NCBI GenBank assembly: GCA_018920255.1
Contig: JAHLMR010000007.1
Location: forward strand, 1 to 29,485
Direction of reading: 5' to 3'
DNA from: Candidatus Aenigmatarchaeota archaeon
Lineage (GTDB): Archaea > Aenigmatarchaeota > Aenigmatarchaeia > Aenigmatarchaeales > JAHLMR01
Length of the DNA stretch: 29,485 nt
A model generated the notes under the pieces. It was not told the origin of the DNA. It did not search any database and saw nothing but the letters and a program-made list of their open reading frames with translations. The number at the start of each line of letters is the position of its first letter. The first letter of the stretch is position 1. A program made the translations under genes and the position numbers. This document shows, piece after piece, positions 535 to 20,259 of the stretch.

Positions 535-646
535 ATAAATAATTTAATTTTATTTATATTTAAAACTTGAAAAATAAAATAAATTTTTTATTGATATGTA
601 ATAAGTTTCTAAATTTGTGAATTTAAAATTGGTGTCGGGGGCGGGG

Positions 647-758
647 ATTTCTCTGCAACTTCTTCGAAGCTTCTTTTTCAAAAAAAGAAGCTTCAGCAAG
701 AAAAACTGTCTTTCTTGATGCAACTTCTTTTTTAAAGAAGTTGCAAAGAAGGTTCTTC
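647..758 (-). other. T-loop intervening sequence of tRNA(CAU), ~112 nt, putative 59/60-type intron (ends +/-2 nt)
   Basis: Lies between GCGGG-TTCAAA and C-CCCGC. It consists of stacked hairpins (GCAACTTCTTT/AAAGAAGTTGC, CAAGAAA/TTTCTTG, GAAGCTTCTTTTT/AAAAAGAAGCTTC). Confidence 0.7.
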
Positions 759-780
759 TTTGAACCCGCGACCTTCAGAT

Positions 781-816
781 ATCTCATTGATTTATTCTCG
801 AAACTCATAAATCTAT
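781..816 (-). other. Canonical 37/38 intron of tRNA(CAU), 36 nt
   Basis: CTCA (nt 32-35) pairs with TGAG just upstream of a 3-nt bulge ATA that precedes TCTGA. An inner helix GATTTAT/ATAAATC completes a bulge-helix-bulge-like fold with both cuts after the second bulge nucleotide. Confidence 0.75.
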
Positions 817-832
817 TATGAGTCTGACGCTC

Positions 833-847
833 TTTCCTGCAATAATG
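833..847 (-). other. Extra ~14-15 nt in the D-loop of tRNA(CAU), candidate micro-intron
   Basis: 24 nt (AGCCTGGTACATTATTGCAGGAAA) lie between D-stem GCTC and GAGC, where 8-11 are expected. Boundaries are not resolved. Confidence 0.4.
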
Positions 848-895
848 TACCAGGCTGAGCCACCCCGACTTTAAAAAAATAATAAAAATTAGAAT

Positions 896-1615
896 TTATA
901 AATTAAAATATTTAAGTGCATCATATATATTATTCACTGCAATTACTTGTATACCTTCTATTACAATATCTTTAATATTTTTCTTTTCATATCTTTTTTC
1001 ACAAATTTCATAACCATTTTGATTTATACATTTTTCAACTGGTGTATAAATATCTTGTTTAAAATTTTCTTCTGGAATTAGAAATATACTAACTCCTTTA
1101 CTTTTTGCTGCTTTAATTTTTTCTAAAATTCCTCCAACTTCTCCTATACTTCCATCTTTTTCTATTGTTCCGGTAATTATAATGCTTTGATTAATAGATT
1201 TGTTTTTTAATGCTGCTATTGTTGCTATTGTAATTGCTGCACCTGCAGAAGATCCTCCTACTAATGTAGCATTATCTGTTTTTATTGTATAGATAATATC
1301 AATATTATTAGTATTTATTCTAGTAATTTCTTCTGCTATTTTTTTAGCTGTTTGAATAGAATCCTGAGTATCAACCCAAAATTTTATTTTATCTATATTA
1401 GTAAGAATTTTTCCAGAACCCGGTTGTATCTCAACTATTAGTTCAGTTAGCACACCTTTATTGTTTTCATCTACTGCAGGTAAATACATTTTTACATATG
1501 AAGAATTTATTTGGGTTTCCTCATAAGAAATTTGATTTTGAAAATAAAAAAATAATAAAAAATATGTTAAAAATATGAAAATTAATATTAAAATAAAATA
1601 TTTAGTATTTTTCAT
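896..1615 (-). CDS. Membrane-anchored Lon-type (S16) peptidase domain protein without an AAA+ module
   Basis: Contains GGSSAGAAITIATIAAL (catalytic Ser motif) and GGILEKIKAAKSKGVSIFLIPEEN (catalytic Lys region), plus an N-terminal TM helix. I moved the start to the MKNTKYF Met at 1615, because the longer ORF (to 1684) overlaps the upstream small gene. Confidence 0.75.
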   Translation of the reverse strand: MKNTKYFILILIFIFLTYFLLFFYFQNQISYEETQINSSYVKMYLPAVDENNKGVLTELIVEIQPGSGKILTNIDKIKFWVDTQDSIQTAKKIAEEITRINTNNIDIIYTIKTDNATLVGGSSAGAAITIATIAALKNKSINQSIIITGTIEKDGSIGEVGGILEKIKAAKSKGVSIFLIPEENFKQDIYTPVEKCINQNGYEICEKRYEKKNIKDIVIEGIQVIAVNNIYDALKYFNL

Positions 1616-1640
1616 AATCTTATAAATAATTTGATAGTAT

Positions 1641-1793
1641 TTATTTTTTTGCTTTACCGAGAATTCTAAAAACTTTTGTTCCACATGTAGGACAAACTCC
1701 TTGAATAGCCTTTAATCCATTTTTCATTTCAACTTCTCTTGCATCCTTTATTTCAACTGTTTTTTTACATTTCATACATCTACCTTCTGTCAT
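1641..1793 (-). CDS. Small zinc-ribbon protein, 50 aa (DUF5679-like)
   Basis: Hand translation: MTEGRCMKCKKTVEIKDAREVEMKNGLKAIQGVCPTCGTKVFRILGKAKK*. It has CxxC...CxxC, is 51 codons long, and falls below the ORF-track cutoff. Confidence 0.7.
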   Translation of the reverse strand: MTEGRCMKCKKTVEIKDAREVEMKNGLKAIQGVCPTCGTKVFRILGKAKK

Positions 1794-1862
1794 AAATAAC
1801 ACCTCTTTAAATAATATTTAAATAATAATAAAAATATTAAGTTATTAAAGATTGTGGTTTAT

Positions 1863-2285
1863 ATGAGAGGTATATCACCTTTAATAGCTTCAATTTTACT
1901 TATAGCCTTAACAATGACAATTGCTGTAATTCTTGCAAATTGGGCTACGGGAATAACACAACAAACATTAGCTACTACTCAAAGATGTATTGGTGCAAGA
2001 CTAGAATATACAACAGCAGATTATCCCAAATGGAATCCTTCTGATGGAAGCATAGTAGCAGTTATAACATCTTATGGGGCAACAATGGGAAAATTTAAGT
2101 TTGAAATACTTTTAACAAACGATACAATTTTAGTTTTTCCTGATAAAACTAATCTTATATTAGCATCTGGAAGTACTGGTACAGTTATGAGCGATCCAAT
2201 ATTAGTTTCAAGAGATAATATTAGAATGGTAAGAATAACTTCAAATTGTACAGATGTAAAAACAACATGGGAATCATTAAAATAA
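1863..2285 (+). CDS. Archaeal type IV pilin-like protein (class III signal peptide)
   Basis: MRG|ISPLIASILLIALTMTIAVILANW matches the archaeal pilin N-terminal consensus (K/R-G cleavage site followed by a hydrophobic helix). The ATG at 1863 is preferred over the GTG at 1854. Confidence 0.75.
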   Translation: MRGISPLIASILLIALTMTIAVILANWATGITQQTLATTQRCIGARLEYTTADYPKWNPSDGSIVAVITSYGATMGKFKFEILLTNDTILVFPDKTNLILASGSTGTVMSDPILVSRDNIRMVRITSNCTDVKTTWESLK

Positions 2286-2286
2286 A

Positions 2287-2934
2287 TTACCAGCATTTTA
2301 TATAATTATTTAAAATTTCTATATTTACTGGCTCATAAAAAACATATTTTTCATCTAATATATATGCTGGAATTGAAGTAATATTATAATTTGTGAGAAG
2401 GATATCTATACTTGTAAGATTTAAATCTGTTGGTAAAGTTATGTATACTGTTTTAATCCCACATCTTTGTTTAAAATCAAAAAGCAATACATCCAAAATT
2501 TTTTGTTTTTCTGTTTTGTTATAATATGAATAAAAATAAATAACAGTTGAAAGTTTATCAGCACATAAATTTTTAAGTTTTAATGTATTTTTTAAAAGCT
2601 GAAGATCTAATAATGCATAATTTTGTTTTTCTAATAAAATTTCATTTGTTAATTTATTTGCAGTATCATAAAGTTCAATTTTTTTTCCAAAAAAATATAT
2701 TTTATCAGCTAAAATCCTATTTTGTTCTATTAAATAATCGCATTTTTCAGAAGTAGAAGCATTTATATACTCTTCAAAAAATTTTGCATCATTCCATAAA
2801 ATATTTATGTATAAATTTTCATTTTTTATTTCATTTAATCTTATAACTTCAGAGAGGTATCCAATCAAAAAGAAGGTAAAAATTATTATAAAAAAAATTA
2901 TTAATGTTTTTCCTATTAGGTTTTTTAGTTTCAT
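2287..2934 (-). CDS. Hypothetical N-terminally anchored protein, coupled to the GT2 gene
   Basis: The ATG lies 2 nt after the GT2 stop (TAGTTATG). There is one N-terminal TM helix and no motif I recognise. Confidence 0.6.
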   Translation of the reverse strand: MKLKNLIGKTLIIFFIIIFTFFLIGYLSEVIRLNEIKNENLYINILWNDAKFFEEYINASTSEKCDYLIEQNRILADKIYFFGKKIELYDTANKLTNEILLEKQNYALLDLQLLKNTLKLKNLCADKLSTVIYFYSYYNKTEKQKILDVLLFDFKQRCGIKTVYITLPTDLNLTSIDILLTNYNITSIPAYILDEKYVFYEPVNIEILNNYIKCW

Positions 2935-2936
2935 AA

Positions 2937-4160
2937 CTACCACGAATATGATTTTGTTAAAAACTTTATTGTTGAATGAATATAATTTAATGGTGTTAAG
3001 AATATATAAATTGTTAAAAATATTATTAAAATGAAAAAATTATCTTTAATTTTTATTTTTAAATTTATTTTATGAAAGCTTAACCATATCCATAAAAAAG
3101 ATGAAAATATAGAAAAAATACTTAAAATTATAAAAATATTAGGCAAAAGTAAGCTATCAAAATTCAGAATATTTAATAAGTTTACACCATAAAAAGATGA
3201 TGAAAATATAATAAGAATATCATAAAGCCTTGTTAAAATTAAATAAACTGTTAATATAAGCCCCAAAATTGTGAAAAAATATGCAGATATAAATAATGGA
3301 ATAACAAAACAACCAAATCCACTATATTTAGTATTAAATAACATATCTATATGTTTTATTGTTGTTTGCATTCCACCAATATTCCATCTTATTCTTTGAT
3401 GCCACCATTGTTTAAATGTTTCAGGAACAGAAGTTAAAATTTTTATTGGGACTGACATTTTTATTTTATATCCATGTCTTAAAATTCTCCATGCAATTTC
3501 TATATCTTCAGTCATATTATTTTTATCAAAACCACCTATTTCTTTTAATACTTTTTTTCTATAAAGAGCAAATGGTCCTGGAGTTACATATATTGCATTT
3601 AAATTTTCTAAAATTTTTCTACTTAGAATATATAAGATATATTCAATACTTTGGAGTTTTTCTATTATATTTTTTGGCCTATCAACAAAAATAGAAACTG
3701 TTACTGCAGCAACATCTTTATCTTCAAAAAAACCAATAGATTTTAGTAATGCATCTTTTGAAGGATATGTATCAGCATCTATAGTAACAATTATCTCTCC
3801 CTTAGCTTTTTTTAATCCATAATTTAATGCATCTGCTTTTCCTCCATTTTTCTTAGAAAAAACTTTAATTCCTTTTATTTTTTTTAAAATTTCTAAAGAA
3901 TTATCTGTTGAACCATCATTTATAACTATAATTTCAAATTTTTTAGGATATTTTAATTTTTTAACATATTCTATAGTTTTTTTAATACATTTTTCTTTAT
4001 TATAAACAGGTATTAAAATACTTACAGAAGGGAAACTTTTTGGCTTAGAATATGAAACTATATTTTTTCTTGAAATATAAAATAGATTAAAGAAAAAAAT
4101 CATGAAAAAAATACTTGAAATAATTAAAAACAAAAATATCCAATCTAATAAATACATCAT
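2937..4160 (-). CDS. Processive family-2 glycosyltransferase (PgaC/IcaA/NodC/chitin-synthase-like), integral membrane
   Basis: Motifs INDGSTD, DADT, TEDIE and QRIRW (the D,D,D,QxxRW signature), with N- and C-terminal TM helices. Confidence 0.8.
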   Translation of the reverse strand: MMYLLDWIFLFLIISSIFFMIFFFNLFYISRKNIVSYSKPKSFPSVSILIPVYNKEKCIKKTIEYVKKLKYPKKFEIIVINDGSTDNSLEILKKIKGIKVFSKKNGGKADALNYGLKKAKGEIIVTIDADTYPSKDALLKSIGFFEDKDVAAVTVSIFVDRPKNIIEKLQSIEYILYILSRKILENLNAIYVTPGPFALYRKKVLKEIGGFDKNNMTEDIEIAWRILRHGYKIKMSVPIKILTSVPETFKQWWHQRIRWNIGGMQTTIKHIDMLFNTKYSGFGCFVIPLFISAYFFTILGLILTVYLILTRLYDILIIFSSSFYGVNLLNILNFDSLLLPNIFIILSIFSIFSSFLWIWLSFHKINLKIKIKDNFFILIIFLTIYIFLTPLNYIHSTIKFLTKSYSW

Positions 4161-4180
4161 AATTAATACCTTAAGAAAAA

Positions 4181-4213
4181 ATTAAATAAAAACCTGATGG
4201 AAAAACCATCAGG
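4181..4213 (-). terminator. Hairpin plus T-tract downstream of the S-layer gene
   Basis: CCTGATGG-5 nt-CCATCAGG (8 bp stem, 4193-4213), followed on the minus strand by TTTTTATTTAATTTTTT. Confidence 0.55.
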
Positions 4214-4225
4214 CTAATTTAAATT

Positions 4226-6364
4226 CTATTGTACAACTACTGTTTGGAAGTTTTCTCCAGTTACTTTTGCTGAACTGGATGTTATGCTTGCAAGTTTTGT
4301 TCCATCTTGTACTACACGTGCTGCAAGCATTGTATCTTGTGCGCGTGTTCCAGCAATAATTAAAGCTGTCTTTCCTGATGTAAATGCATCTTTAACAACT
4401 TTAATTATTCCAAAGTTTTCTGCTGGCCAGTTTTCACATGTGTAATCAAACTTTCCTGCTGTTGCTAAATCTGCAACTAAGCTGTTTACACATGGACCTC
4501 CTACTAATACTAAATCATAGCCAGATTTATCACTTGCTGAAACTTCGCTGTCAAGTTTAACTACATTTGATGTTATTGGTACTGCTTCTTTATAAGTTGT
4601 TCCTCCAGCAGCAGATGTTTGTATTCCTAATCCAAATTTTCCTTTTACTTGTTGTGCTGGATATTTTATTACAACTTTATTGTTTCCAGCATTTGTTTTT
4701 ACATTAACTAATGTTATTCCAAAATCTGATACGATGTCATGTTCCCATGTTCCAACTTCCGCTGGATTGCCTGCTGTATTATCAAATTTTACATCTCCTG
4801 TTTCTGCATCATCACTAGTTCCTAATCTTATTTTTTTGTCAGCGCTATTATAGTTATAATATGCTTCCCAAGCATTATTTGTTTTTGTACCGAATAGTTT
4901 AGGATGTGTGTTATTTGTATAATTTATTGTATCTGTTGTTTGATCATATGTTAAGCTAGCAATGGTAACCCCTGATGCTCCAGATGCATCTTTCCATTCT
5001 GTTGCATTTACATATCTTGAAGATTTTGAATCATAGTATACAACCATTATATGCTTGTCTGATGTTGTTTTATTAATTAACATATATACATCTTTTTGAT
5101 AACCTTCAACACCATTTATGTTAAATATTGGAACATCTGAGGATAATTTTATTGCAGCTACTTCACTTGATGGTACTAAAATACCATATCCAGATGATGC
5201 TGTACTATTATATACTGTAAATCCAGAAACCGGTGAAATTGTTATTGTTGCATATTTGTTTACTGTAAATCCTTCAAATACAAATCCTGTATAATCTTCA
5301 GGGGTCATTAATTTTTCTCCTGATTTTAGATAAAATGTATTTCCATCTTTATCAGTACCACTGAATTTTACTCCTATGTAATCACTTGTACCCCATTTAT
5401 TTGTATTAGCAAAGCTTATATCCCATTGCCATGATTGATCATTTTCAGTGTATAAATCTCCAGAATTTATTGTTTTTTCAATATCTGACCCAACCGCTGC
5501 AAAAATCTCTGCTTTTGCTACTCCATATACTTGAAATTCATATGCATTTTGTAAATATATTTTTAGATTTCCATTATCAAATTCTTCTGTTGAGCCTTTT
5601 GTTATAATCTTTTGATCAACTAGTGATCCTCCTTTATAAACTGCTATTTCAGCCTGTGTTGAACTTCCCATTATAAATTTTATTTCATAATCTCCAACTG
5701 TTAAGCTTCTTGTTGCATCAATTGTTCCTTTAGTTCCTTTTAATACAGTTATTGAACTACCACCGATTCTTGTTAACAAATAGTCTTTACCTAATATTTT
5801 TATTGAAAGAGGTTTTGTTGCGCTTAATCCACTTAAATCAACTGTTTGAGTTGATATTATTCTATATTCAAATCCGCCTAAATCTTTTGCAACAACTGTT
5901 CCATTATAGATATCTTTATTATTATCTAATGTCATACCTGTACCTAATACTATTTTTTCTTGTAGTGTTGTTTTGTTTCCACCAAAGTTTATATCAAATT
6001 CTTTTAAAGATGGTATTGAAACACTACTAAATTGTGTTGTTCCAAATGCATTATCTATATCTCCGCCAAATTCTACTTCTCTTTCTGGTCCATCAACTTT
6101 AGCTAATCCTGTTCCTGCAACAGATTTTTCTATTGTTGCTTTTCCTGCTAACATTACTGCAACATTTATTGCTCCTGCTACATCTTCTGCTTTTGCATTT
6201 GCTCCAACTACGAATAATGGAAAGCTTACTGTACTATCTGTTACTGATACTAAATCACTGATTTTATTTACTTGAGTTATAGTTGCTGCCATTACAGGTG
6301 CTGCTACTGTTAATCCTGTCATTAAAGCAGATCCTGCTATTGCAGCTAATTTTCTAAATTGCAT
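4226..6364 (-). CDS. S-layer (surface layer) protein precursor
   Basis: Signal peptide MQFRKLAAIAGSALMTGLTVAAPVMA|A and a T/S/G/N/V-rich body. The C-terminal block DLVLVGGPCVNSLVADLA...ALIIAGTRAQDT resembles euryarchaeal S-layer C-termini. There is a strong GGAGG SD and a structured leader. Confidence 0.75.
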   Translation of the reverse strand: MQFRKLAAIAGSALMTGLTVAAPVMAATITQVNKISDLVSVTDSTVSFPLFVVGANAKAEDVAGAINVAVMLAGKATIEKSVAGTGLAKVDGPEREVEFGGDIDNAFGTTQFSSVSIPSLKEFDINFGGNKTTLQEKIVLGTGMTLDNNKDIYNGTVVAKDLGGFEYRIISTQTVDLSGLSATKPLSIKILGKDYLLTRIGGSSITVLKGTKGTIDATRSLTVGDYEIKFIMGSSTQAEIAVYKGGSLVDQKIITKGSTEEFDNGNLKIYLQNAYEFQVYGVAKAEIFAAVGSDIEKTINSGDLYTENDQSWQWDISFANTNKWGTSDYIGVKFSGTDKDGNTFYLKSGEKLMTPEDYTGFVFEGFTVNKYATITISPVSGFTVYNSTASSGYGILVPSSEVAAIKLSSDVPIFNINGVEGYQKDVYMLINKTTSDKHIMVVYYDSKSSRYVNATEWKDASGASGVTIASLTYDQTTDTINYTNNTHPKLFGTKTNNAWEAYYNYNSADKKIRLGTSDDAETGDVKFDNTAGNPAEVGTWEHDIVSDFGITLVNVKTNAGNNKVVIKYPAQQVKGKFGLGIQTSAAGGTTYKEAVPITSNVVKLDSEVSASDKSGYDLVLVGGPCVNSLVADLATAGKFDYTCENWPAENFGIIKVVKDAFTSGKTALIIAGTRAQDTMLAARVVQDGTKLASITSSSAKVTGENFQTVVVQ

Positions 6365-6374
6365 TTATTTCATT

Positions 6375-6440
6375 CCTCCTTTTTATTTTTTGTGCGGTGA
6401 ATGCACAAAAATATAGAGTGCTAACTTTTTGTAGCACTCT
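6375..6440 (-). promoter_or_regulatory. Structured 5' leader of the S-layer gene with SD
   Basis: AGGAGG (6375-6380) lies ~10 nt upstream of the ATG. Hairpin TGTGC-7-GCACA spans 6391-6407 and hairpin AGAGTGCTA-8-TAGCACTCT (9 bp) spans 6415-6440. A possible TATA (TTATAT) sits near 6461-6468. Confidence 0.5.
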
Positions 6441-6617
6441 TTTCATATTAAAATATTATGATATAAGGGGTTATTAAATTTTCTTTAAACTGTTTCTATA
6501 TTGTTTTTTATATTAAAAATATTATTTTTTAAATTAAAAATAAATTATATAAATGCTTTAAAAAGTTTATAATGGTGTTTTATAACTTATTTTTTAATAA
6601 AAAGTAATTTAAATATA

Positions 6618-7505
6618 TTATTTTTTTGAAAATTCTTTAACAACATAAATCCTGTTAGAACGTCCAATTCTTTCTAATCTTATTATTCCTCTCTCACTTA
6701 AATTCTTTAAAACCTTAGAAACTTTTGCTTTAGAAAATTTACTTTCTCTAACGATTACTTTTTGATTAACACCATCTCCATGTTTTAATATTAATTCCAT
6801 TATTAATTTTTCATCTGATTTTAAAATTGGGAGAAATATTTGTACTCCAAGTTTTTTTCTAAACCTAAAAATTAAAATAATTATTAAAATTGAAACAGTA
6901 GCTATTATAATTGTAATTAATGGAATTTCTGTTTTTTCTTTTATTAAAGATTCATAAAATATTTGGAATGATAAAAGTTCACCTAATGGTAAATTGTTTT
7001 TTTGCCAATAAACAAAAATTTTTCTTCCATCACTTGCAATATTTCCATATGTTGGAATTATTGATTCTCTATCAGAAATTATTGCTGTTCCTTCAGGTAA
7101 ATATACTTTATATAAAAATGAATTTATTGTATCATAAACAATGAATTCTTTTTTAAATGAAAAAATATTATTTTCTTTTTTTATATTTGAGGAAATAAAA
7201 TTAATTTTTAAACTTCTGTTTGATTCAGATGCTAATTTTGTATCACAAATCAATAAATTTCTATCAGCTGATTTAGATAATTCACAAGATGCAGGAAAAT
7301 TAGAAGAATAAGAAAAGTTTTTAATATCGAATAAAAATGAAATTTTTACTTGGGATGTTTCATTTGGTTCTATTGTCATTATAATATTATCAGTTATCAA
7401 ATTATCATAAATTATTGATTCTTCACCAAAATAAATTATTTTAGAAAATGATGCCTGAGAAAATAAAAAAATAAATAATAGTATAGTAATTAAATATCTA
7501 TTCAT
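6618..7505 (-). CDS. Single-pass membrane protein with extracytoplasmic domain and C-terminal winged-helix DNA-binding domain
   Basis: Signal/anchor MNRYLITILLFIFLFSQASF, a TM helix IPLITIIIATVSILIIILIF, then DEKLIMELILKHGDGVNQKVIVRESKFSKAKVSKVLKNLSERGIIRLERIGRSNRIYV (MarR/TrmB-like wHTH). Confidence 0.65.
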   Translation of the reverse strand: MNRYLITILLFIFLFSQASFSKIIYFGEESIIYDNLITDNIIMTIEPNETSQVKISFLFDIKNFSYSSNFPASCELSKSADRNLLICDTKLASESNRSLKINFISSNIKKENNIFSFKKEFIVYDTINSFLYKVYLPEGTAIISDRESIIPTYGNIASDGRKIFVYWQKNNLPLGELLSFQIFYESLIKEKTEIPLITIIIATVSILIIILIFRFRKKLGVQIFLPILKSDEKLIMELILKHGDGVNQKVIVRESKFSKAKVSKVLKNLSERGIIRLERIGRSNRIYVVKEFSKK

Positions 7506-7948: not shown

Positions 7949-8032
7949 TAAAATCCCTTAGTTAATATTTTAATTTTTTATTTTAAAAAGATTAAATATA
8001 TTAAATAATATGCCCCAGTAGCTCAGTTGGTA

Positions 8033-8045
8033 CAAATGCAAAAAA
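8033..8045 (+). other. ~12-13 nt extra segment in the D-loop of tRNA-Thr, candidate micro-intron
   Basis: The D-loop is AGTTGGTACAAATGCAAAAAA (21 nt). It shares GGTACA..TGCA..AAAGAGC with the D-loop insertion of tRNA(CAU). Confidence 0.4.
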
Positions 8046-8083
8046 GAGCGGCTGCCTCGTAAGCAGCAGGTCGGGAGTTCAAA

Positions 8084-8107
8084 GCAGCTTTTAAAAAATG
8101 AGTAAAA
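8084..8107 (+). other. ~24 nt T-loop insertion of tRNA-Thr (putative intron, ends approximate)
   Basis: TTCAAA|GCAGCTTTTAAAAAATGAGTAAAA|A-CTCCC. Same entry point (after TTCAAA, starts with G) as the long elements. Confidence 0.55.
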
Positions 8108-8138
8108 ACTCCCCTGGGGCTCCAAAGAGGTGCTTAAA

Positions 8139-8447
8139 ATGCCGGAATACATATGTTTTGTGAAAAAGAATAATGTAAAAAAAGCTGAAGAAAAATTAAG
8201 AAAGGATTTTGATATTGCAGCAAAGCAATCAATAACAATTCGTGATAACATATCATTAGGAATAAAAATTCAAGAAGAAGGAAGTTTCTTTTATATTCGT
8301 GGTACTGAAGAGGGTATATTAAGATGTAAAGAACTTATTAAAGAATTTGTGTTTGAGTTAAAAAATGAAATTTTAAATGAAGCAAAAAACAAAATATTAG
8401 AGGAAGAAGAAAAGGCAACAACAGGATTTGGAGGAATATTTGGGTAG
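8139..8447 (+). CDS. Small hypothetical protein with ribosomal-stalk-like acidic C-terminal tail
   Basis: GAGGTG SD then ATG at 8139. Sequence runs MPEYICFV...EEEEKATTGFGGIFG*. See findings. Confidence 0.6.
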   Translation: MPEYICFVKKNNVKKAEEKLRKDFDIAAKQSITIRDNISLGIKIQEEGSFFYIRGTEEGILRCKELIKEFVFELKNEILNEAKNKILEEEEKATTGFGGIFG

Positions 8448-8716: not shown

Positions 8717-8874
8717 GCGCCATTGGTCTAGTGGTAGGATAGGAGCTTCCCAAGCTCTTGGCCTGGGTTCAAAGAACCTTCTTTCTTAAAGAAAGAAGGT
8801 TCATCAAGAAAGACAAATTTTCTTGATGCAACTTCTTTTTTAAAGAAGTTGCGGGATTCCCAGATGGCGCACCA
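8717..8874 (+). tRNA. tRNA-Gly(CCC) with 84-nt T-loop insertion, CCA encoded
   Basis: GCGCCAT-TG-GTCT-AGTGGTA-GGAT-A-GGAGC-TTCCCAA-GCTCT-TGGC-CTGGG-TTCAAA[84 nt]T-CCCAG-ATGGCGC-A-CCA. Confidence 0.85.
8774..8857 (+). other. T-loop intervening sequence of tRNA-Gly(CCC), 84 nt, three hairpin modules
   Basis: Modules: GAACCTTCTTTC-TTAAA-GAAAGAAGGTTC; ATCAAGAAA-GACAAA-TTTTCTTGAT; GCAACTTCTTT-TTT-AAAGAAGTTGC. It ends with GGG-AT before the 3' exon. Confidence 0.7.
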
Positions 8875-12602: not shown

Positions 12603-12634
12603 ATTTTTTAAGTATTGCATTTAAGGTATAATTT

Positions 12635-13198: not shown

Positions 13199-14312
13199 TA
13201 TATGAAAGAACAACAGAAGCATATGAACCAGGAGGTAAAATAAAACTTATTTTTGCTTTTAATTTTCCTTTGTTTATTTCATCTTCAGAAATTTCTATAA
13301 TTTTTAATTCTTTTGGAATCAATAAAATATTTCTTTCAGAACCCGTACATGCAAGTTCTGGCATGGATTTCATTTTAAAATCTTCTAATTTTATATTATT
13401 TTTTTCTAATTCTTTTATTAATTCATAATGAAATAAATTATCTTTATTTAATATTGTGTTATACCCTGGGAGAGGAAGTTTATCATTTATTTTTGCATTT
13501 TTCCATATTCTACTAACAACATTATTCCATATTTCTGATTGGACAGCATTAATAAATATCTTTCTTAATCTTTTTGGTATTCTTCTTAATGCTCCTGCAA
13601 AATCATTTTTATTTTTCATAAGATAATCTAACATGGACCTTTCCCATTTTAATCTTTTAGGAAATAATTTTAAAGAATCTGAAAAATTTTTTTGCTCCCA
13701 ATTTTTAGCTAACCAATTTCTTGCTTTTTTTGCATCTTCAGGTTCATTTTCAAAAACTTTTGTTAAATATATTTTTACTGCATTTTCAAAATCTGATTTA
13801 AGCATAGCTTTTCCAACTTCTGCTGTTATTGGTCTTACTTCTCCAAATCTTTGTGGTCCAAAAAAATTTGGAATTCCTTTTTCAAGATTCTTAAAAATAC
13901 TAATTAGTTTTCTTTCTAATTCGTTTTTTTCATCTTTTATATCTCTTATAGTAATAATAAACTTATTTCCTTTAATCATTCCTAAATTTAATCTTTCCGA
14001 GCTTTGTTTGTAAAATGTTATTTTCATATCTTTTAATTTTAAATTTTCAAGTTGTTCTTTAGAAACTTTCCAAACAGAAACAAATTGTTTTGTTACAGCT
14101 CTTTTATCTTTCGTTCCTGCTATTCCAAATCTCTTTTTACTGACTTTAAGAGCTTTAGCTATTCTTAAAATTGCTTGTGTTGTCTCCCAATTAAATTTTT
14201 CTAATATAAAAATTGAATATTCTCCATTTTTATCTTCTTTTATATCCATTGGTATTTCTTCAACATAAAAATCTTCTATTCTTTGTCTTAATTTTCCATT
14301 TATTTTTTCCAT
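13188..14312 (-). CDS. truD: tRNA pseudouridine synthase TruD/Pus7 family
   Basis: FGIAGTKDKRAVTKQ is the TruD catalytic Asp motif; size and layout fit. Confidence 0.8.
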   Translation of the reverse strand: MEKINGKLRQRIEDFYVEEIPMDIKEDKNGEYSIFILEKFNWETTQAILRIAKALKVSKKRFGIAGTKDKRAVTKQFVSVWKVSKEQLENLKLKDMKITFYKQSSERLNLGMIKGNKFIITIRDIKDEKNELERKLISIFKNLEKGIPNFFGPQRFGEVRPITAEVGKAMLKSDFENAVKIYLTKVFENEPEDAKKARNWLAKNWEQKNFSDSLKLFPKRLKWERSMLDYLMKNKNDFAGALRRIPKRLRKIFINAVQSEIWNNVVSRIWKNAKINDKLPLPGYNTILNKDNLFHYELIKELEKNNIKLEDFKMKSMPELACTGSERNILLIPKELKIIEISEDEINKGKLKAKISFILPPGSYASVVLSYIIS

Positions 14313-15106
14313 TATAGCTCAACCATACTTACTGTAAGACAATCTCTTATTCCTAACGCAAGTCCTAAAATTAGAATGATAAATTTTAAAAAATTTTTAA
14401 AGTTTTGATTATCTGCATATTTATCTATTAGTAAAAGAGATAACCAAACAACTATTAGCTTAAGTGGAAACATTATCCATGCCCCAAAATTTGAAATAAG
14501 AAAAGAAGGTAAAACATGCTGTTCATAGTATCCAAAATAGGTAAGTGCGGTATAAGTTGAAGATGCATCAAAAAGGTGTGCGAAAATTATTGATGCATTT
14601 ATTTTTGATAATAAATTTAACTTTAAAAGAAAAAGAATAAAAATCAAACAAAACATTGAAAATAAAAAAACATAATAAAGACTTAGTGGATTTGTAATTT
14701 TTGTAATTGATAGATTGTAAAAACAAAATATTAAACCTGTTCCAAATAAAATTTTATAGTATTTTATTTTAAATTTTTTTTCAGTTAAAATGGAAATTAA
14801 AAATGTTATAAAAACTAATATAAAAATTATAAAATATATTGGTGGACTACACCACCACCAAGCATTATTTGAATATATACCAGCCCCATGATCTTTTAAT
14901 GCTCTTGTCCAACCACCATATATTATAAATGGAATAAAACCTATGAAAAAATATTTATCTATTTTTATTTTTAATTTATTTATTACTTTATAAATTCCTA
15001 GTGCAAAAATACAGAGAATTAAACCATATAATAAAGTTGCTTCTAAAGTATAGTAGTGACATAGAGGATTAATAAATTTTTCATATATATAAGAATTTAT
15101 ATCCAT
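14312..15106 (-). CDS. Multi-pass membrane protein (possibly DUF63-like)
   Basis: About 7 hydrophobic segments. The family assignment is from memory only. Confidence 0.5.
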   Translation of the reverse strand: MDINSYIYEKFINPLCHYYTLEATLLYGLILCIFALGIYKVINKLKIKIDKYFFIGFIPFIIYGGWTRALKDHGAGIYSNNAWWWCSPPIYFIIFILVFITFLISILTEKKFKIKYYKILFGTGLIFCFYNLSITKITNPLSLYYVFLFSMFCLIFILFLLKLNLLSKINASIIFAHLFDASSTYTALTYFGYYEQHVLPSFLISNFGAWIMFPLKLIVVWLSLLLIDKYADNQNFKNFLKFIILILGLALGIRDCLTVSMVEL

Positions 15107-15111
15107 TTAAA

Positions 15112-15450
15112 TCACAAAAGTTTTAAATTTCCTGTTATTTCATCTATTTTTTCATCTTCATCTGGTCCTAATCCTAATGCTGTTATTGTACCTGGTTCTA
15201 TTTGAGTTAATCCTTTATCTATTATAATTTCTGATGGTATTTTTTTATTTTCTGCAAGTTTTTTTAAAATTAAAATTTCGTTTTCAGAGCTAACCTTTAC
15301 AACAACTTTTTTCATTCCTTCATTTATCCACTTCTCTCTTTTTTTCTTATCTGATTTAAGAAAAGCAGCTAAACTTGCGTGTGCTGCTTGACTACATAAC
15401 TTTCCTTTTCCCATTTTTAAATCTGTTCTTATAACTATCACTTGTTTCAT
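15112..15450 (-). CDS. pth2: Peptidyl-tRNA hydrolase, archaeal type (Pth2)
   Basis: MKQVIVIRTDLKMGKGKLCSQAAHASLAAF. I moved the start to the internal Met. Confidence 0.88.
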   Translation of the reverse strand: MKQVIVIRTDLKMGKGKLCSQAAHASLAAFLKSDKKKREKWINEGMKKVVVKVSSENEILILKKLAENKKIPSEIIIDKGLTQIEPGTITALGLGPDEDEKIDEITGNLKLL

Positions 15451-15455
15451 TTTTA

Positions 15456-16013
15456 TCACAAAAGCTTTTTGATTGCAATATAAAATCTTTCTATAAAGCA
15501 ATAAAAACTTATTATCGTTACTGCTATTGCAGCATAATAAATATAATTAAACAATAATCCAAAAATAAAAATAGTTAATCTTATTCCTCTCCAACTTATT
15601 TTTTCTCCTATATTTGTTTTTAATAAAAATTCTAATACTGCACTCTCATAACTTGAAATTAAAACAAGTGATAAAAGTACAATTCCTAATAAAATATCAA
15701 CATATCCAGTTAATATAATAGAACCGATTAAAAGAGTGTCAGAAATTCTATCTGAAAATCTATCAAAAAAAACTCCAAAGTTTGTTGTACATTTTTTTAT
15801 TTTTGCTAATGAACCATCTAAAATATCAAAAAAACCAGATAATAAAACAAATAATGCTGCTATTTGGAGATTTTTATTTAAAATAAATAAAGAAGCTATT
15901 AACATTAAAACTATACTAAAAAGAGTTATAAATTTTGGAGATATGTTTATTTTTTTTACAATTTTTATAATGACTTTTCTCTCAAAATTTTCTTTTATAT
16001 TTGAAAGCAGCAT
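15456..16013 (-). CDS. CDP-alcohol phosphatidyltransferase family protein (archaetidyl headgroup synthase type)
   Basis: DILDGSLAKIKKCTTNFGVFFDRFSD matches Dx2DGx2A(R/K)x8Gx3Dx3D. Multi-TM. Confidence 0.8.
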   Translation of the reverse strand: MLLSNIKENFERKVIIKIVKKINISPKFITLFSIVLMLIASLFILNKNLQIAALFVLLSGFFDILDGSLAKIKKCTTNFGVFFDRFSDRISDTLLIGSIILTGYVDILLGIVLLSLVLISSYESAVLEFLLKTNIGEKISWRGIRLTIFIFGLLFNYIYYAAIAVTIISFYCFIERFYIAIKKLL

Positions 16014-16065
16014 AAATTAATTTAAACCGTATGAATTTAAAAAGATAAAAAATATATGAGAAAAT

Positions 16066-16566
16066 ATGATAGATTTATCCTCAATTTTTGCTTTAATAAC
16101 ATCATTTTCTATTAGTTTAGGGTATTTAGGTGCATTTATTTTAGGTTTTTTTAGTAGTTTCACTCTTTTTATACCATCTCCAACATTTATAGGAGTTTTT
16201 ACTCTTGCTGCTTTAGGAACCTATAATCCGCTTTTATTAGGAATTTTTGGTGGATTAGGTGCAACAATAGGAGAATTAATAGGGTTTGTAGTTGGTGTTG
16301 GGAGTAAAAAAATTTTAATAAAAAAATATGAAAAGGAATTAATTGATATTGAAAGAAAATTTCAAAAATATGGTGGGTTTATAATAATTTTTATTTTTTC
16401 TGCAACCCCATTACCATTTGATTTGGTTGGTATTTTTTGCGGAAGTATAGGATATCCATTTAAAAAATTCTTTTTAGCAACATTTTTTGGAAAATTAATA
16501 AAATATATATTTATTGCTTATGCTGGTTTTTATGGTATGCATTGGTTAGTTTCATATCTATTTTAA
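16066..16566 (+). CDS. DedA/VTT (SNARE-associated) family membrane protein
   Basis: Multi-TM; the motif region SATPLPFDLVGIFCGSIGYPFKKF resembles the VTT domain. Confidence 0.5.
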   Translation: MIDLSSIFALITSFSISLGYLGAFILGFFSSFTLFIPSPTFIGVFTLAALGTYNPLLLGIFGGLGATIGELIGFVVGVGSKKILIKKYEKELIDIERKFQKYGGFIIIFIFSATPLPFDLVGIFCGSIGYPFKKFFLATFFGKLIKYIFIAYAGFYGMHWLVSYLF

Positions 16567-17256
16567 TAATTCTTCTTTTCTTTTTTTAGAAAAAAACCAG
16601 TTCACAGATCTCCATATTTTTTTATAATAAACTTCTATTAAAATTTTTCTTTTAGCTTCTCTTCCAAAAACCTTTACTTTTCCATTTTTTATTTCTGAAA
16701 TTGGATCATTATTACAAATTATACCAGCCGCTCCTAAGGTAAGAATAGAATGAGAATCGCTTCCAGCTACCATTGGAATAGAATATTTAATTGCAAGTTC
16801 TTTTGCTGAATTGTTTTGAAATTTTAAAGCAGAACATGCATTAAGTACTTCTATTGCATCAGCAAATATTGCTTTTTTCATTAAACATTCTCTTAAAATA
16901 AATTTTGCAAACGGATGTGGGGCAATTGCTATTCCACCTTGAGAATGTATTTCATCTATAGAATCCTTAAGAGACATATAAGGTTTTATTTCTTTATGTA
17001 AACCTATTCCTAATAAATCACCAGATGCTGTTTTTATTTCTTCACCTATTATTACATTAAAATTTGGATATTTTTTCTTTGCATAATTTTTTGCTTTTAA
17101 TGCCCCCTTAATTGTATTATGGTCTGTAATTGCTATTCCGTTTAATCCTTTTTTTACTGCGGCATCTACAATTTCTTCAGGCGTGTTTAAAGCATCATAG
17201 CCCCAAAAAGCCACTTTACTATAAATTGTATGAACATGTAAGTCGTATTTTTTCAA
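16558..17256 (-). CDS. PHP-domain metal-dependent phosphoesterase
   Basis: YDLHVHTIYS...GIAITDHNT...APHP...GSDSH are the His/Asp clusters of the PHP fold. Confidence 0.75.
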   Translation of the reverse strand: MKKYDLHVHTIYSKVAFWGYDALNTPEEIVDAAVKKGLNGIAITDHNTIKGALKAKNYAKKKYPNFNVIIGEEIKTASGDLLGIGLHKEIKPYMSLKDSIDEIHSQGGIAIAPHPFAKFILRECLMKKAIFADAIEVLNACSALKFQNNSAKELAIKYSIPMVAGSDSHSILTLGAAGIICNNDPISEIKNGKVKVFGREAKRKILIEVYYKKIWRSVNWFFSKKRKEELLK

Positions 17257-17260
17257 AATA

Positions 17261-17800
17261 TCACCAGGGAACTGATTTCAGTTTAATTAAATAGCTTATA
17301 ATATTTGTTATTCTATGAACTATTATTGTAAAAATTATCATAAATAAAAACATAATTACTGTAATTTTAAAAAATAATAAGCCTATCATTGTTGCAGATA
17401 AAATAAAATTTGTTTGATCTAAAATTGGTGCATCAGCGCCTCTTTCAAGACTAATTCTTCTTTTTATAAAGCTTCCAATTAAATCTCCTGATAAAGCACT
17501 AAAAGACAATATTAATGCATTTAACGGGTTTATGTAAGGAAGTTCAAAACCATAATAAATTGCTATTGAATTAAATTTAGGGTATAAAATCCACAATATT
17601 CCACCATAAAAAATTCCTGCAAGAATTCCTATTATAAATCCCTCTATTGTTTTTCCATCACCAAATATTCTTTTCCCATCACTCCAAGTTTTTTTAAAAT
17701 CTATAGGTACTTTTCCTTTTACTAAAACGGGAAAACCATTAGCAGCATATAATGGAATTAATAACCACAATGCTTTTATTATTTCATATAATATATCCAA
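17261..17800 (-). CDS. carS: CDP-archaeol synthase (CarS, DUF46)
   Basis: LYAANGFPVL...FGDGKTIEGF...SFIKRRISLERGADAPILDQ. The track ORF runs on to 17881 through the tRNA, so I propose the in-frame TTG at 17800 (start uncertain). Confidence 0.75.
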   Translation of the reverse strand: MDILYEIIKALWLLIPLYAANGFPVLVKGKVPIDFKKTWSDGKRIFGDGKTIEGFIIGILAGIFYGGILWILYPKFNSIAIYYGFELPYINPLNALILSFSALSGDLIGSFIKRRISLERGADAPILDQTNFILSATMIGLLFFKITVIMFLFMIIFTIIVHRITNIISYLIKLKSVPW

Positions 17801-17814
17801 ATAAACACCTAATT

Positions 17815-17998
17815 TGGTGCGCCAGCTGGGAATCCCGCAACTTCTTCGAAGCTTCTTTTTCAAAAAAAGAAGCTTCAGCAAGAAAAACTTTTTAAGTTTT
17901 CTTGATGAAACTTCTTTTTCTAAAAGAAGTTTCGAAGCTTCTTCGAACCCAGGTCAGCAGCTTGGAAGGCTGCGGTCCTACCACTAGACTACTGGCGC
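17815..17998 (-). tRNA. tRNA-Gly(UCC) with 110-nt T-loop insertion, CCA encoded
   Basis: GCGCCAG-TA-GTCT-AGTGGTA-GGAC-C-GCAGC-CTTCCAA-GCTGC-TGAC-CTGGG-TTCGAA[110 nt]T-CCCAG-CTGGCGC-A-CCA. Confidence 0.85.
17832..17941 (-). other. T-loop intervening sequence of tRNA-Gly(UCC), 110 nt
   Basis: T-loop UUCG can pair with the intron-terminal CGGG, followed by a 3-nt bulge AUU, giving a half-BHB at the 3' site. The element shares a 53-nt identical block with the Met/Lys element. Confidence 0.7.
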
Positions 17999-18157
17999 TT
18001 TTGTTAAAAGCGTTAGTATAATTTCAAGAGCAGCAAAACCTGTACAAATTAATACAACATGCTCTGGTTTTAATTTTATTAAACTTTTATCTTCTTCGTA
18101 ATATCTTACAAGACCCCCCATACTTGCTGGGGTTTGTATTTTTAATTTTTCTGCCAT
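17984..18157 (-). CDS. secG: Preprotein translocase subunit Sec61beta/SecG (archaeal)
   Basis: PASMGGLVRYYEED followed by a C-terminal TM helix. Its last 5 codons and stop overlap the 5' end of tRNA-Gly(UCC). Confidence 0.8.
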   Translation of the reverse strand: MAEKLKIQTPASMGGLVRYYEEDKSLIKLKPEHVVLICTGFAALEIILTLLTKAPVV

Positions 18158-18199
18158 ATTAATCAATTTAATTTTATATTTTTTTAACTTTTTAAATAT

Positions 18200-18985
18200 T
18201 TATTTTATTATAAAATAATCTACAAGTTTTCCTTTCTCATCTCTTAAATATACAATATCATAATTGTTATTCCAAATAGGAAATCCGGAATTCCAATAAA
18301 AAATATTTTTCGTATTATATCCATAACCAGTATATAAAATTAAAGAAGAATTTGATTCTAAAGAATGATTAAAAATAAAAGTATTCCATGCTGAATCATG
18401 AATTTTCCATTTTGAAATATTACAAGAAAAATTACATAAGTTTTTTATTTCAACATATTCATCATTTAATGAATTTTTTTCAATAGCATTTATTTTTAAA
18501 ATTTTTATACAATTTTTACATGGATTTTCTGATTTTTCGCATAAACCTATATTTTCTTTTATACAATCTTTAAATGCATTTTCAAAATCAAAAGTATATT
18601 TAAAATTACTATTTAATATATAAGGTAAAGCAAGTCCGTTTTTAATCATTTCTTTATTTACATTTGTATTATTAAGAAAAATAATTCTTAATAACCTTCC
18701 ATATTTATCTTTATTATCTTTGATTTTTTCTAATAAAACATATTTATTAAGAACTAAATATTTCAATTCTTCCTTTGCTTTTTCATAGTATTTATCTCCG
18801 TTTTCTGGAGCATTAATTCCTAAAAGTCTTACTTTTTCTCCTGTTTCAATTTCTATTGTATCACCATCGATAACATTAATAACAAAGGCTATTTGTTTTT
18901 CCTTATTAAATGTAAAAAATATAACTATACTTAAAATAGAAATAAAAATAATTAATAAAATAATACGCTCTCTTGTAAATTTCAA
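18200..18985 (-). CDS. Membrane-anchored/secreted staphylococcal-nuclease (SNase) domain fused to a lamin-tail-like domain
   Basis: VIDGDTIEIETGEKVRLLGINAPE...YGRLLRIIF...NKEMIKNGLA (SNase). C-terminal NDEYVEIKNLCNFSCNISKWKIHD resembles LTD. A TTG start after GAGGT is proposed at 18985; the track start is 19030. Confidence 0.7.
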   Translation of the reverse strand: MKFTRERIILLIIFISILSIVIFFTFNKEKQIAFVINVIDGDTIEIETGEKVRLLGINAPENGDKYYEKAKEELKYLVLNKYVLLEKIKDNKDKYGRLLRIIFLNNTNVNKEMIKNGLALPYILNSNFKYTFDFENAFKDCIKENIGLCEKSENPCKNCIKILKINAIEKNSLNDEYVEIKNLCNFSCNISKWKIHDSAWNTFIFNHSLESNSSLILYTGYGYNTKNIFYWNSGFPIWNNNYDIVYLRDEKGKLVDYFIIK

Positions 18986-18989
18986 AAAA

Positions 18990-19184
18990 TCAAACCTCAG
19001 CTGCAACTGATATCCAAAACATTCCTGCAACCAAAATTAATACAAAAGCAATTATATATGCTATTGATACTGATAATAAATCTGTTCCTAATTCAGAAGG
19101 ATTTATATTTCCTGCTATTAAAATTCCTAAAAAAAGACATATTCCACCAATTATCCAAAAACTTATTTCTTTTGCTGTTACCAT
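18990..19184 (-). CDS. Small two-TM membrane protein
   Basis: 64 aa with two hydrophobic helices. No motif. Confidence 0.45.
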   Translation of the reverse strand: MVTAKEISFWIIGGICLFLGILIAGNINPSELGTDLLSVSIAYIIAFVLILVAGMFWISVAAEV

Positions 19185-19227
19185 AAAAATATTTTAATGT
19201 ATTTAATATTTAAAACTTTCTAAATTT

Positions 19228-20061
19228 TCATAACAGAATTTTTTTAAAAATTTCAATTGTATCAACTGGCTCATATTTTAAATCTTTAATGGTTTTTTGT
19301 ATGTTATAATTTCTATCTTCAAAAAATGCAGAAATTGTTTCTTGGGTTATTGGAGGTTCTATATTAATAAAATTACTTAAATTCTTTATTAGAGCAAATA
19401 TTTTTTTAATAAGCTCTATATCCTTTTTTGTAAAATAAATGATTTTATATTTATCTTTTAATGTATTAGCAAGATTTTGAAATAAAAATGAATTTTTATC
19501 TGCTACATAATATATCTCAGAGTTTCCATGAAATATTGAGAGATATATTGCTTCTACTACTTTTTTAAGATAAACCAAATGAAGGTTTAAATCTTTAATT
19601 ATAGGTAAAATTTTAAATTTTTTTATAAGTTTAAGTCTATTTTCATCATATACTGGTGCAATCCTTAATATTGGTATTTTAATGTTTTTTTGAAAATCAA
19701 AGGCTATTTTTTCTGCTTCTTTTTTACTCTTGGAATATAATGTTTCTGTTTTTTCTGTTACTGCAACAGAACTAATATAAATAACTCTTTCAATTCCTTC
19801 CTCTTCAGCAACCTTTAAAATATTATAAGTACCATTAACATTTATATTTTTTATTTTTTTGTAGTCTCCACTATATTTTTTTAATGCTGCTAAATGAATT
19901 ACAACATCAGAATTTTTTATTGTTTTTTTAATGTGTGATGTATTAGTAATATCATAACCTAAGGATTTTGAAAACATTATAACTTTATGACCTTTATTAT
20001 TAAGATATTTTACAACTTCTTTTCCTATATAACCTGTTGCTCCAGTAACAAAAACCCTCAT
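19228..20061 (-). CDS. NAD-dependent epimerase/dehydratase (SDR) family protein
   Basis: MRVFVTGATGYIGKEVV is a Rossmann GxxGxxG; YSKSK fits YxxxK. Confidence 0.8.
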   Translation of the reverse strand: MRVFVTGATGYIGKEVVKYLNNKGHKVIMFSKSLGYDITNTSHIKKTIKNSDVVIHLAALKKYSGDYKKIKNINVNGTYNILKVAEEEGIERVIYISSVAVTEKTETLYSKSKKEAEKIAFDFQKNIKIPILRIAPVYDENRLKLIKKFKILPIIKDLNLHLVYLKKVVEAIYLSIFHGNSEIYYVADKNSFLFQNLANTLKDKYKIIYFTKKDIELIKKIFALIKNLSNFINIEPPITQETISAFFEDRNYNIQKTIKDLKYEPVDTIEIFKKILL

Positions 20062-20072
20062 AAAAATCTCTT

Positions 20073-20259
20073 TGGTGGGCCCAACGGGATTCTCTGCAAC
20101 TTCTTCGAAGCTTCTTTTTCAAAAAAAGAAGCTTCAGCAAGAAAAACTGTCTTTCTTGATGCAACTTCTTTTTTAAAGAAGTTGCAAAGAAGGTTCTTCT
20201 TTGAACCCGCGACCTTCCGCTTAAGAGGCGGTTGCTCTACCAGACTGAGCTATGGACCC
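20073..20259 (-). tRNA. tRNA-Lys(CUU) with 110-nt T-loop insertion, CCA encoded
   Basis: GGGTCCA-TA-GCTC-AGTCTGGTA-GAGC-A-ACCGC-CTCTTAA-GCGGA-AGGTC-GCGGG-TTCAAA[110 nt]T-CCCGT-TGGGCCC-A-CCA. One A27/A43 mismatch and two G:U pairs. Confidence 0.85.
20090..20199 (-). other. T-loop intervening sequence of tRNA-Lys, 110 nt, identical to the tRNA(CAU) copy
   Basis: 20092-20216 equals 651-775 base for base in my manual alignment. Confidence 0.75.

Follow-up and report, generated by a model that had tools for sequence, protein, structure and literature searches.

Candidate introns at T-loop position 59/60 in each of five tRNA genes on an Aenigmatarchaeota contig

Positions 20/21 and 59/60 are both listed among archaeal tRNA intron sites (PMC4090602). 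The closest described case at 59/60 comes from ARMAN-2 (Candidatus Micrarchaeum, a DPANN archaeon), whose pre-tRNA-Cys(GCA) carries a 13-nt intron at this position within an hBH, or bulge-helix-loop (BHL), motif and is cut in vitro by the organism's own epsilon2 splicing endonuclease, EndA (PMC3239211, PMC3488258). In the same organism, tRNA-Pro(GGG) has T-loop introns at 53/54 and 59/60, and 56% of tRNA genes are disrupted (PMC3239211, PMC3488258). DPANN EndAs of the alpha4 type with an L3 loop have been associated with more disrupted tRNA genes, and incomplete DPANN tRNA sets have been attributed to disrupted genes that escape detection (PMC5829648). In Thermoproteales, near-identical introns occur in different tRNAs, a pattern read as intron transposition of unknown mechanism (PMC4033280, PMC4090602); the studies of Sugahara 2008 and Fujishima 2010 on multiple-intron tRNAs in this group are drawn on here as they are summarised in those two papers. 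Here we describe a 29,485-nt stretch of DNA from a Candidatus Aenigmatarchaeota archaeon (contig JAHLMR010000007.1 of assembly GCA_018920255.1), referred to as the window, in which all five tRNA genes are interrupted in the T-loop by inserts that are probably introns of the relaxed type known from ARMAN-2.

On the raw window, ARAGORN reported no tRNA gene, and neither did the Rfam tRNA model at gathering scores. With the Rfam search relaxed to E<=5, the tRNA matches were all truncated ones, at the Lys, Gly-UCC and Thr loci, and the rest of the window yielded no tRNA fragment. The best of these, to the 5' part of the Lys gene, reached 28.9 bits against a cutoff of 29 bits. After in-silico excision of the inserts, ARAGORN called all five genes, as Met(CAU), Thr(CGU), Gly(CCC), Gly(UCC) and Lys(CUU). 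Excision of the T-loop insert alone was sufficient for Gly(CCC), Gly(UCC) and Lys(CUU); the CAU and Thr genes needed further excisions. A custom cloverleaf scanner that permits inserts in the D-, anticodon- and T-loops found the same five genes and no others in the window. When the Lys gene was compared by BLAST with annotated tRNA-Lys genes, the similarity spanned query positions 1-60 and ended at the T-loop.

The anatomy of the genes can be read directly. Every T-loop insert is preceded by TTCRAA (positions 54-59) and has G as its first nucleotide. A single nucleotide separates its end from the 3' strand of the T-stem, and the loop measures 7 nt once the insert is removed. An earlier model-made reading of the same DNA (the original prediction) had described T-loop inserts of 24-112 nt with these features in five of five genes, and had foreseen that standard finders would probably miss or mis-score the genes. 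Coordinates and excision confirm the first statement; the ARAGORN check that it had proposed, run here on the window (0/5 raw, 5/5 after excision), and the Rfam tRNA model agree with the second. The inventory in that prediction was right for the five T-loop introns but overlooked three others: the five genes hold eight introns in total, five at 59/60, two at 20/21 (in the CAU and Thr genes) and one at 37/38 (in the CAU gene). Its description of all stems as perfect also does not hold for Lys, which has an A27xA43 mismatch and G.U pairs.

The position of the junction is not always determined by sequence. For Lys, cuts at 57/58, 58/59 and 59/60 all give one and the same product, and ARAGORN, which accepts shifts of about 2 nt, is unable to decide between such sites. 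Position 59/60 is the sole register that yields a 7-nt loop in all five genes and places the 3' cut in a 3-nt bulge beside the T-stem. It also gives the Gly(CCC) gene the loop TTCAAAT, which is the loop of uninterrupted tRNA-Gly genes in relatives. The other registers, from 56/57 to 58/59, were tried by hand as bulge-helix-bulge (BHB) candidates and rejected, as none of them forms a central helix.

Each intron was then scored in the strict BHB register, which comprises an exonic helix (h), a central helix (H) and an intronic helix (h'). The T-stem provides an exonic helix of 5/5 bp in all five T-loop introns, stacked on the 3-nt bulge that holds the 3' site (AU|C, AA|U, AU|U, AU|U and AA|A). 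Four of the five allow an H of 3-4 bp, in which U54-U55-C56(-R57) pairs with intron positions -3 to -6; at a fixed register, a 3-bp H would arise by chance with a probability of about 0.06. A two-nucleotide difference at the 3' ends means that the Met and Lys introns reach their 3-bp H in separate registers. When the T-arm and intron were folded without constraint, the T-stem, the 3-nt bulge and a 4-bp H formed in Gly-UCC and in no other gene, and imposing the motif on the other long introns cost 1.8-4.9 kcal/mol relative to the optimum. No stacked h' was found in any of the five 59/60 introns under strict-register scoring, and they lack the strict hBHBh' (3-4-3) architecture, which is present in the CAU 37/38 intron and, approximately, in the CAU D-loop intron. 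Overall, the predicted pairings fit the relaxed hBH (BHL) motif of archaeal introns, and a motif of this relaxed kind would call for a broad-specificity endonuclease. The D-loop introns, with a predicted H of 3-4 bp in the same genes, suggest that the organism does handle non-canonical sites.

We propose that the T-loop inserts are archaeal tRNA introns of the hBH type, spliced by EndA and RtcB, and we hold this with considerable confidence. In the pre-tRNA, the T-stem (49-53/61-65) would form and serve as h. U54-U55-C56(-R57) would pair with a purine-rich tetramer at intron positions -3 to -6 to make H, and intron nucleotides -2 and -1 together with N60 would make up the 3-nt bulge in which the 3' cut falls. 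For the 5' cut, the predicted place is two nucleotides 3' of H, at A58 A59 | G+1, within a loop or multi-helix junction. Once EndA had cut at both sites, RtcB would ligate A59 to N60 and would probably also close the intron into a circle. The ARMAN-2 precedent supports this pairing scheme, which we infer from the sequence. In geometry, 59/60 corresponds exactly to 37/38, with the T-arm in place of the anticodon arm: both have a 5-bp stem and a cut that follows the sixth of seven loop nucleotides.

Several observations weigh against this proposal. Splicing and junctions are predicted from the DNA sequence, and neither EndA (tRNA_int_endo) nor RtcB was found in the approximately 37 kb of host genome examined for tRNAs and for these two enzymes, which covers the window and, for tRNA_int_endo, the Pfam-annotated strain contigs. 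The tRNA sample consists of five genes in a window of about 30 kb. For the Met and Lys introns, the fold of minimum energy has a 16-bp long-range helix that competes with H. In the Thr T-loop intron, H is just 2 bp in the strict register and the constrained fold is weak, while a direct reading gives a 4-bp alternative, UUCA/UGAG, if the bulge is 6 nt. In both Gly genes H is rich in G.U pairs, and no defined 3-nt bulge surrounds the 5' site (A59|G+1), which falls in a loop or multi-helix junction instead. Finally, the long introns described below were found in no second species by any of our searches, and the predicted H is that of this one species.

Some of these features, namely a 5' site without a canonical bulge and the weak H of Thr, would also suit removal of the inserts without a BHB endonuclease, whether by self-cleavage, by self-splicing or by other RNases that leave a nicked or split tRNA, and so would the strong structure of the long introns (fold z-scores of -5.5 to -7.4). 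We regard such a route as unlikely. No ribozyme or group I/II family was matched in Rfam even at E<=5, and group I or II introns are larger than the 24-112 nt of these inserts. What is conserved in the inserts is an hBH-type 3' module beside the T-stem, the same genes hold ordinary BHB introns, and cleavage of a 59/60 hBH intron by EndA has a verified precedent (PMC3239211). The intron matches that Rfam did return at E<=5, miRNA-like hairpins far below threshold and PyrR on the antisense strand, were dismissed as chance. A C/D-box RNA within the intron was likewise considered and rejected by eye, as CUGA is present but RUGAUGA is absent from the sense strand.

A 7-nt T-loop is needed for the elbow formed by the T- and D-loops and for binding to EF-1alpha and the ribosome. 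That the inserts are kept in the mature tRNA as an expanded T-arm is for this reason highly improbable, the more so as the corresponding genes of relatives have normal loops and as inserts of 24 to 112 nt and of differing sequence could not all be tolerated.

The four long T-loop inserts (84-112 nt) are, by alignment, one modular hairpin family that appears to have multiplied recently. The Met and Lys introns are 100% identical over 110 nt, which are the first 110 nt of the Met copy. The identity extends beyond the intron: the full block is 128 nt (20090-20217 versus 649-776) and takes in 18 nt of the 5' exon, so that the shared exon flank may be the footprint of co-conversion along with the intron. 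This exonic part reads GAAGGTCGCGGGTTCAAA; the Lys T-stem closes with a G49.U65 wobble and the Met T-stem with G49-C65. The Gly-UCC intron is a mosaic, since about 50 nt identical to Met/Lys are joined to a 3' end, GGGAU, of the Gly-CCC type. The Gly-CCC intron shares the family modules in alignment.

The recurring unit in the four long introns is a hairpin, G-N-A-N-CUUCUUU...AAAGAAG-N-U-N-C, which occurs in four variants; both variable positions are always paired, through complementary changes in the opposite arm. A second hairpin has the form CAAGAAA...UUUCUUG. Hairpin 1 of Met/Lys is the same as hairpin 3 of Gly-CCC, which indicates that whole modules have been shuffled. All four long introns share the 3' end AAGAAGUUGC followed by RGRR and two nucleotides, and this 3' module, adjoining the T-stem, is the conserved part of the family. 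Within the window, family sequences are found in T-loops only. There is also a likeness between the two D-loop introns, ACATTATTGCAGGAA and ACAAATGCAAAAA (ACA..AUUGCA..AA), which may represent a second, small intron family at 20/21.

The nearest sampled relatives were found at 57-61% protein identity with conserved gene order, which allows several orthologous tRNA genes to be compared directly. Two of them (L017 and L018) have the order Sec61beta - tRNA-Gly - CarS, syntenic with the Gly-UCC locus, and their tRNA-Gly is uninterrupted, with the T-loop TTCAAAT. Another (L022) has the order MJ0538-like - tRNA-Thr(CGU) - two small open reading frames (ORFs) - tRNA-Gly(CCC) - T2SSF. Its tRNA-Thr (4951-5032) has acceptor and T stems as in the window gene, an intact T-loop and an intact D-loop (AGTTGGTA), and its tRNA-Gly(CCC) (5624-5695) is uninterrupted, again with the loop TTCAAAT. 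As the Gly and Thr genes of relatives have no T-loop or D-loop inserts, the gain is recent and at the level of the species, not of the lineage. The original prediction of a lineage-wide, site-specific intron family thus stands as a single family for four of the five inserts; the Thr insert has no clear relation to them, and the lineage-wide part is contradicted by the uninterrupted genes of relatives. From more distant Aenigmatarchaeota (L009, L011, L013 and L014; CarS 49-56% identical) one tRNA was obtained.

Introns at 37/38 were also seen in these genomes. The L022 tRNA-Thr has a 10-nt 37/38 intron, UAUGCGGGCA, with an H of 4 bp (CUCG/CGGG), of a very short BHL type; the window Thr gene has D-loop and T-loop introns in its place and none at 37/38. 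The tRNA of L013 / L014 (8653-8768) combines a normal T-loop with a 43-nt 37/38 intron.

Absence from relatives, together with the multi-copy nature of the element, which breaks short-read assemblies, and the 16-nt near-terminal inverted repeats of the Met and Lys copies (TTCTTTGCAACTTCTT / AAGAAGTTGCAGAGAA), would also be expected if miniature transposons or palindromic repeats (MITE- or REP-like) had inactivated these genes, leaving five pseudogenes with functional copies elsewhere. We think this very unlikely. All five tRNA genes in about 30 kb are interrupted at exactly the same nucleotide, the window copies all lie in T-loops, and there is no consistent target-site duplication around the five inserts. 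The stems are all intact and the genes are identical across strains, and no uninterrupted copy of any of the five isoacceptors was found in the roughly 37 kb of genome examined. Moreover, the inserts carry sequence that could pair with U54-C56 beside a 3-nt bulge, and the inverted repeats of the Met and Lys copies double as an RNA helix. A mobile DNA origin is in itself compatible with spliced introns; what is at odds with our proposal is only the claim that the inserts are not spliced.

Strain contigs that diverge by 0.04-0.9% over the rest of their sequence have the five genes and their introns in 100% identical form. About three strain differences would be expected in the introns alone and none was observed, which is weak evidence for constraint or homogenisation. 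The same comparison bears on whether the inserts are an artefact of assembly or binning. Short-read contigs do break within repeats, and the intron family behaves as a dispersed repeat, with Logan contigs L003, L015 and L021 (SRR27170999) starting or ending inside copies at about 747, 8823, 17862 and 20188. An artefact is nevertheless hardly credible, because the interrupted genes are base-for-base the same in contigs of GCA_038998125.1, GCA_038998315.1 and GCA_038999525.1, and Logan contigs from two sequencing runs have their breaks within the inserts. Taken together, we judge all four of the alternatives discussed (inactivating mobile DNA, removal without EndA, retention and artefact) to be much less likely than splicing by EndA.

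We searched for the introns more widely. Intron DNA patterns gave no match in GTDB species genomes, JGI metagenomes or IMG/VR, and phage and plasmid collections matched the 5' exon only, with no intron. When the pattern was loosened and anchored on the T-arm, 23 metagenome matches appeared, all of which were rejected as chance: they lie inside coding sequence and have no T-stem partner. A search of GTDB genomes for related loci with aIF2-alpha found no close relative. The introns are open in several frames, and a spurious ORF of 112 aa runs antisense through tRNA-Lys (window 19987-20325, forward strand); a mechanically called CarS ORF runs into tRNA-Gly(UCC) (17801-17881, reverse strand). A protein database was compared with the concatenated open-frame translations of the introns, as spurious ORFs over other copies would be detected in this way, and gave no match. 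Amino-acid composition, used for picking same-genome paralogues among protein matches, did not discriminate.

The composition of the motif suggests how a single intron could occupy several genes. At 59/60, the exon half of the recognition motif would be the invariant T-loop UUCR. Because this half is invariant, one intron sequence could be spliced from any tRNA, and this would explain why identical or mosaic copies stand at the same nucleotide in the Met, Lys and both Gly genes. Spread would require a DNA-level step such as gene conversion or transposition. The idea of universal spliceability at 59/60, set against 37/38 where the exon half includes the anticodon, goes beyond the literature consulted, and we infer it from the motif.

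More tentatively, the hairpin family could be an actively spreading, T-loop-specific 'portable' intron that brings its own half-motif (AAGAAGUUGC-RGRR-NN), finds the exon half U54-U55-C56-R57 in place, could enter any tRNA at 59/60, and may occupy most tRNAs of the genome. We regard this extension as possible but doubtful. If it were true, its identical and mosaic copies would be traces of very recent events at the DNA level (such as gene conversion or retro-insertion), and the organism would be a natural system for how archaeal tRNA introns move and a test case for whether disrupted T-arms block integrating viruses and plasmids.

The coordinates of all genes and introns are collected in Table 1.

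Table 1. Interrupted tRNA genes of the window and their introns, with predicted pairings (h, exonic helix; H, central helix; h', intronic helix).
Feature	Position	Strand	Description
tRNA(CAU) gene	630-869	-	Elongator-Met or Ile2 type, G1-C72, not initiator-like; CCA encoded; three introns; ARAGORN Met(cat) only after three excisions
CAU D-loop intron, 15 nt, 20/21	834-848	-	ACATTATTGCAGGAA; H 4/4 bp CCUG/CAGG; both bulges 3 nt; inner 2 bp and tetraloop
CAU 37/38 intron, 36 nt	781-816	-	Strict hBHBh'; H 4/4 bp CUCA/UGAG; exonic helix 5/5 bp; intronic helix present
CAU T-loop intron, 112 nt, 59/60	647-758	-	Hairpin family; h 5/5 bp, H 3/4 bp, no stacked h'
tRNA-Thr(CGU) gene	8012-8124	+	Two introns; CCA encoded; ARAGORN call after both excisions
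Thr D-loop intron, 13 nt, 20/21	8032-8044	+	ACAAATGCAAAAA; H 3/4 bp; resembles CAU D-loop intron
Thr T-loop intron, 24 nt, 59/60	8084-8107	+	h 5/5 bp, H 2/4 bp in strict register; no clear likeness to hairpin family
tRNA-Gly(CCC) gene	8717-8874	+	CCA encoded; ARAGORN call after excision
Gly-CCC T-loop intron, 84 nt, 59/60	8774-8857	+	Three abutting perfect hairpins, then GGGAU (minimum-energy fold); h 5/5 bp, H 3/4 bp
tRNA-Gly(UCC) gene	17815-17998	-	CCA encoded; ARAGORN call after excision
Gly-UCC T-loop intron, 110 nt, 59/60	17832-17941	-	Mosaic family member; h 5/5 bp, H 4/4 bp (two G.U pairs)
tRNA-Lys(CUU) gene	20073-20259	-	CCA encoded; ARAGORN call after excision; 5' exon like annotated tRNA-Lys to position 60
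Lys T-loop intron, 110 nt, 59/60	20090-20199	-	Same sequence as CAU copy; h 5/5 bp, H 3/4 bp

The window has a G+C content of 25%, and its proteins are an ordinary archaeal core set that includes CDP-archaeol synthase, aIF2-alpha, AspRS, PCNA, deoxyhypusine synthase, TruD and an S-layer protein. Proteins identical to window ORFs carry the NCBI name Candidatus Aenigmatarchaeota and sit on contigs of the three assemblies named above (GCA_038998125.1, GCA_038998315.1 and GCA_038999525.1), and identical proteins are also found on Logan contigs from two sequencing runs. The organism is present in runs SRR27170999 and SRR30574052. The suspicion of a DPANN-like genome, which the original prediction had raised from the letters of the window, is borne out by these names.

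Two further features of the region were noted. A single ORF of 428 aa (24382-25668, reverse strand) matches both the small and the large primase subunit families, and thus appears as a fused PriS-PriL primase. An imperfect direct repeat of about 1.1 kb, with 81-98% identity, links window positions 1-503 (plus 590 nt upstream in L019) with positions 14070-15163 of L001. Within it, the C-terminus of a 374-aa ORF beside tRNA(CAU) reappears as the N-terminus of a 367-aa ORF, which lies about 0.9 kb past the other end of the window, directly before DNA ligase. Contig JAVZHM010000005.1 begins within this repeat, and a short related repeat is present at 28149-28222 / 29342-29415.

These results have practical consequences. 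As ARAGORN and the Rfam model miss all five genes, metagenome-assembled genomes of this lineage could seem to lack many tRNAs; and as the intron is a dispersed repeat, short-read contigs break in its copies. For evolution, 100%-identical and mosaic copies at one site that are missing in the nearest relatives offer a very recent snapshot of intron gain. The mechanism by which archaeal tRNA introns spread is still unknown (PMC4090602), and the family described here could be used as a young, single-site example of tRNA intron proliferation. The invariant exon half suggests a simple reason why the T-loop would be a permissive landing site. No new biochemistry is implied.

Of the described systems, ARMAN-2 is the most similar in its site (59/60), its relaxed hBH (BHL) motif, which is predicted for the window, its use of the T-stem as exonic helix, and its DPANN host with many disrupted tRNAs. 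By analogy, a broad-specificity EndA is the expected route of removal here; the demonstration in vitro is that of ARMAN-2. The two differ in phylum, the present host being one of the Aenigmatarchaeota, and in the introns themselves: the ARMAN-2 intron is 13 nt long, whereas four of our five are 84-112 nt, with three hairpins, and belong to one family with identical copies across tRNAs. The original prediction was supported in placing archaeal tRNA introns at a non-canonical T-loop site, now assigned to 59/60. Two of its background statements need correction. Such sites were said to be known mainly from Thermoproteales, but in 2011 an hBH intron at 59/60 was already reported for ARMAN-2, a DPANN archaeon, together with its cleavage in vitro (PMC3239211). 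Relaxed substrates were said to need alpha2beta2 or epsilon2 enzymes, which is outdated, as DPANN alpha4 enzymes with an L3 loop have also been linked to disrupted tRNAs (PMC5829648).

The resemblance to Thermoproteales lies in up to three introns per gene, in sites that include 20/21 and 59/60, in near-identical introns in unrelated isoacceptors, and in recent, lineage-specific gain. The features of a proliferating family, near-identical introns in tRNAs of different amino-acid identity and absence from the genes of related organisms, are both present here. The transposed introns of Thermoproteales are short, whereas the family described here is long and modular. Their introns of one family are found at many positions, whereas this family occupies the T-loop site only, and their hosts are crenarchaeons, as opposed to a DPANN genome of 25% G+C.

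Canonical 37/38 BHB introns share the geometry outlined above, including a 4-nt exon segment that pairs with intron positions -3 to -6. There, the exon half of H includes the anticodon and an intron must fit its own tRNA, whereas UUCR, which is invariant, takes this role at 59/60. A second 3-nt bulge and the intronic helix h' are also absent from the T-loop introns. Split and permuted tRNAs (Nanoarchaeum equitans, Caldivirga, Thermofilum) are likewise disrupted genes with BHB-like junctions in small or thermophilic archaeal genomes, but in the window the exons are contiguous, collinear and on one strand, with no separate halves or permutation seen. In summary, the kind of element, the site, the class of motif and the tendency to spread are already known in archaea. 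What is specific to this genome is the phylum, the interruption of five of five sampled genes at one site, the long modular hairpin build, the fully identical copies, and the absence of the introns from the nearest relatives.

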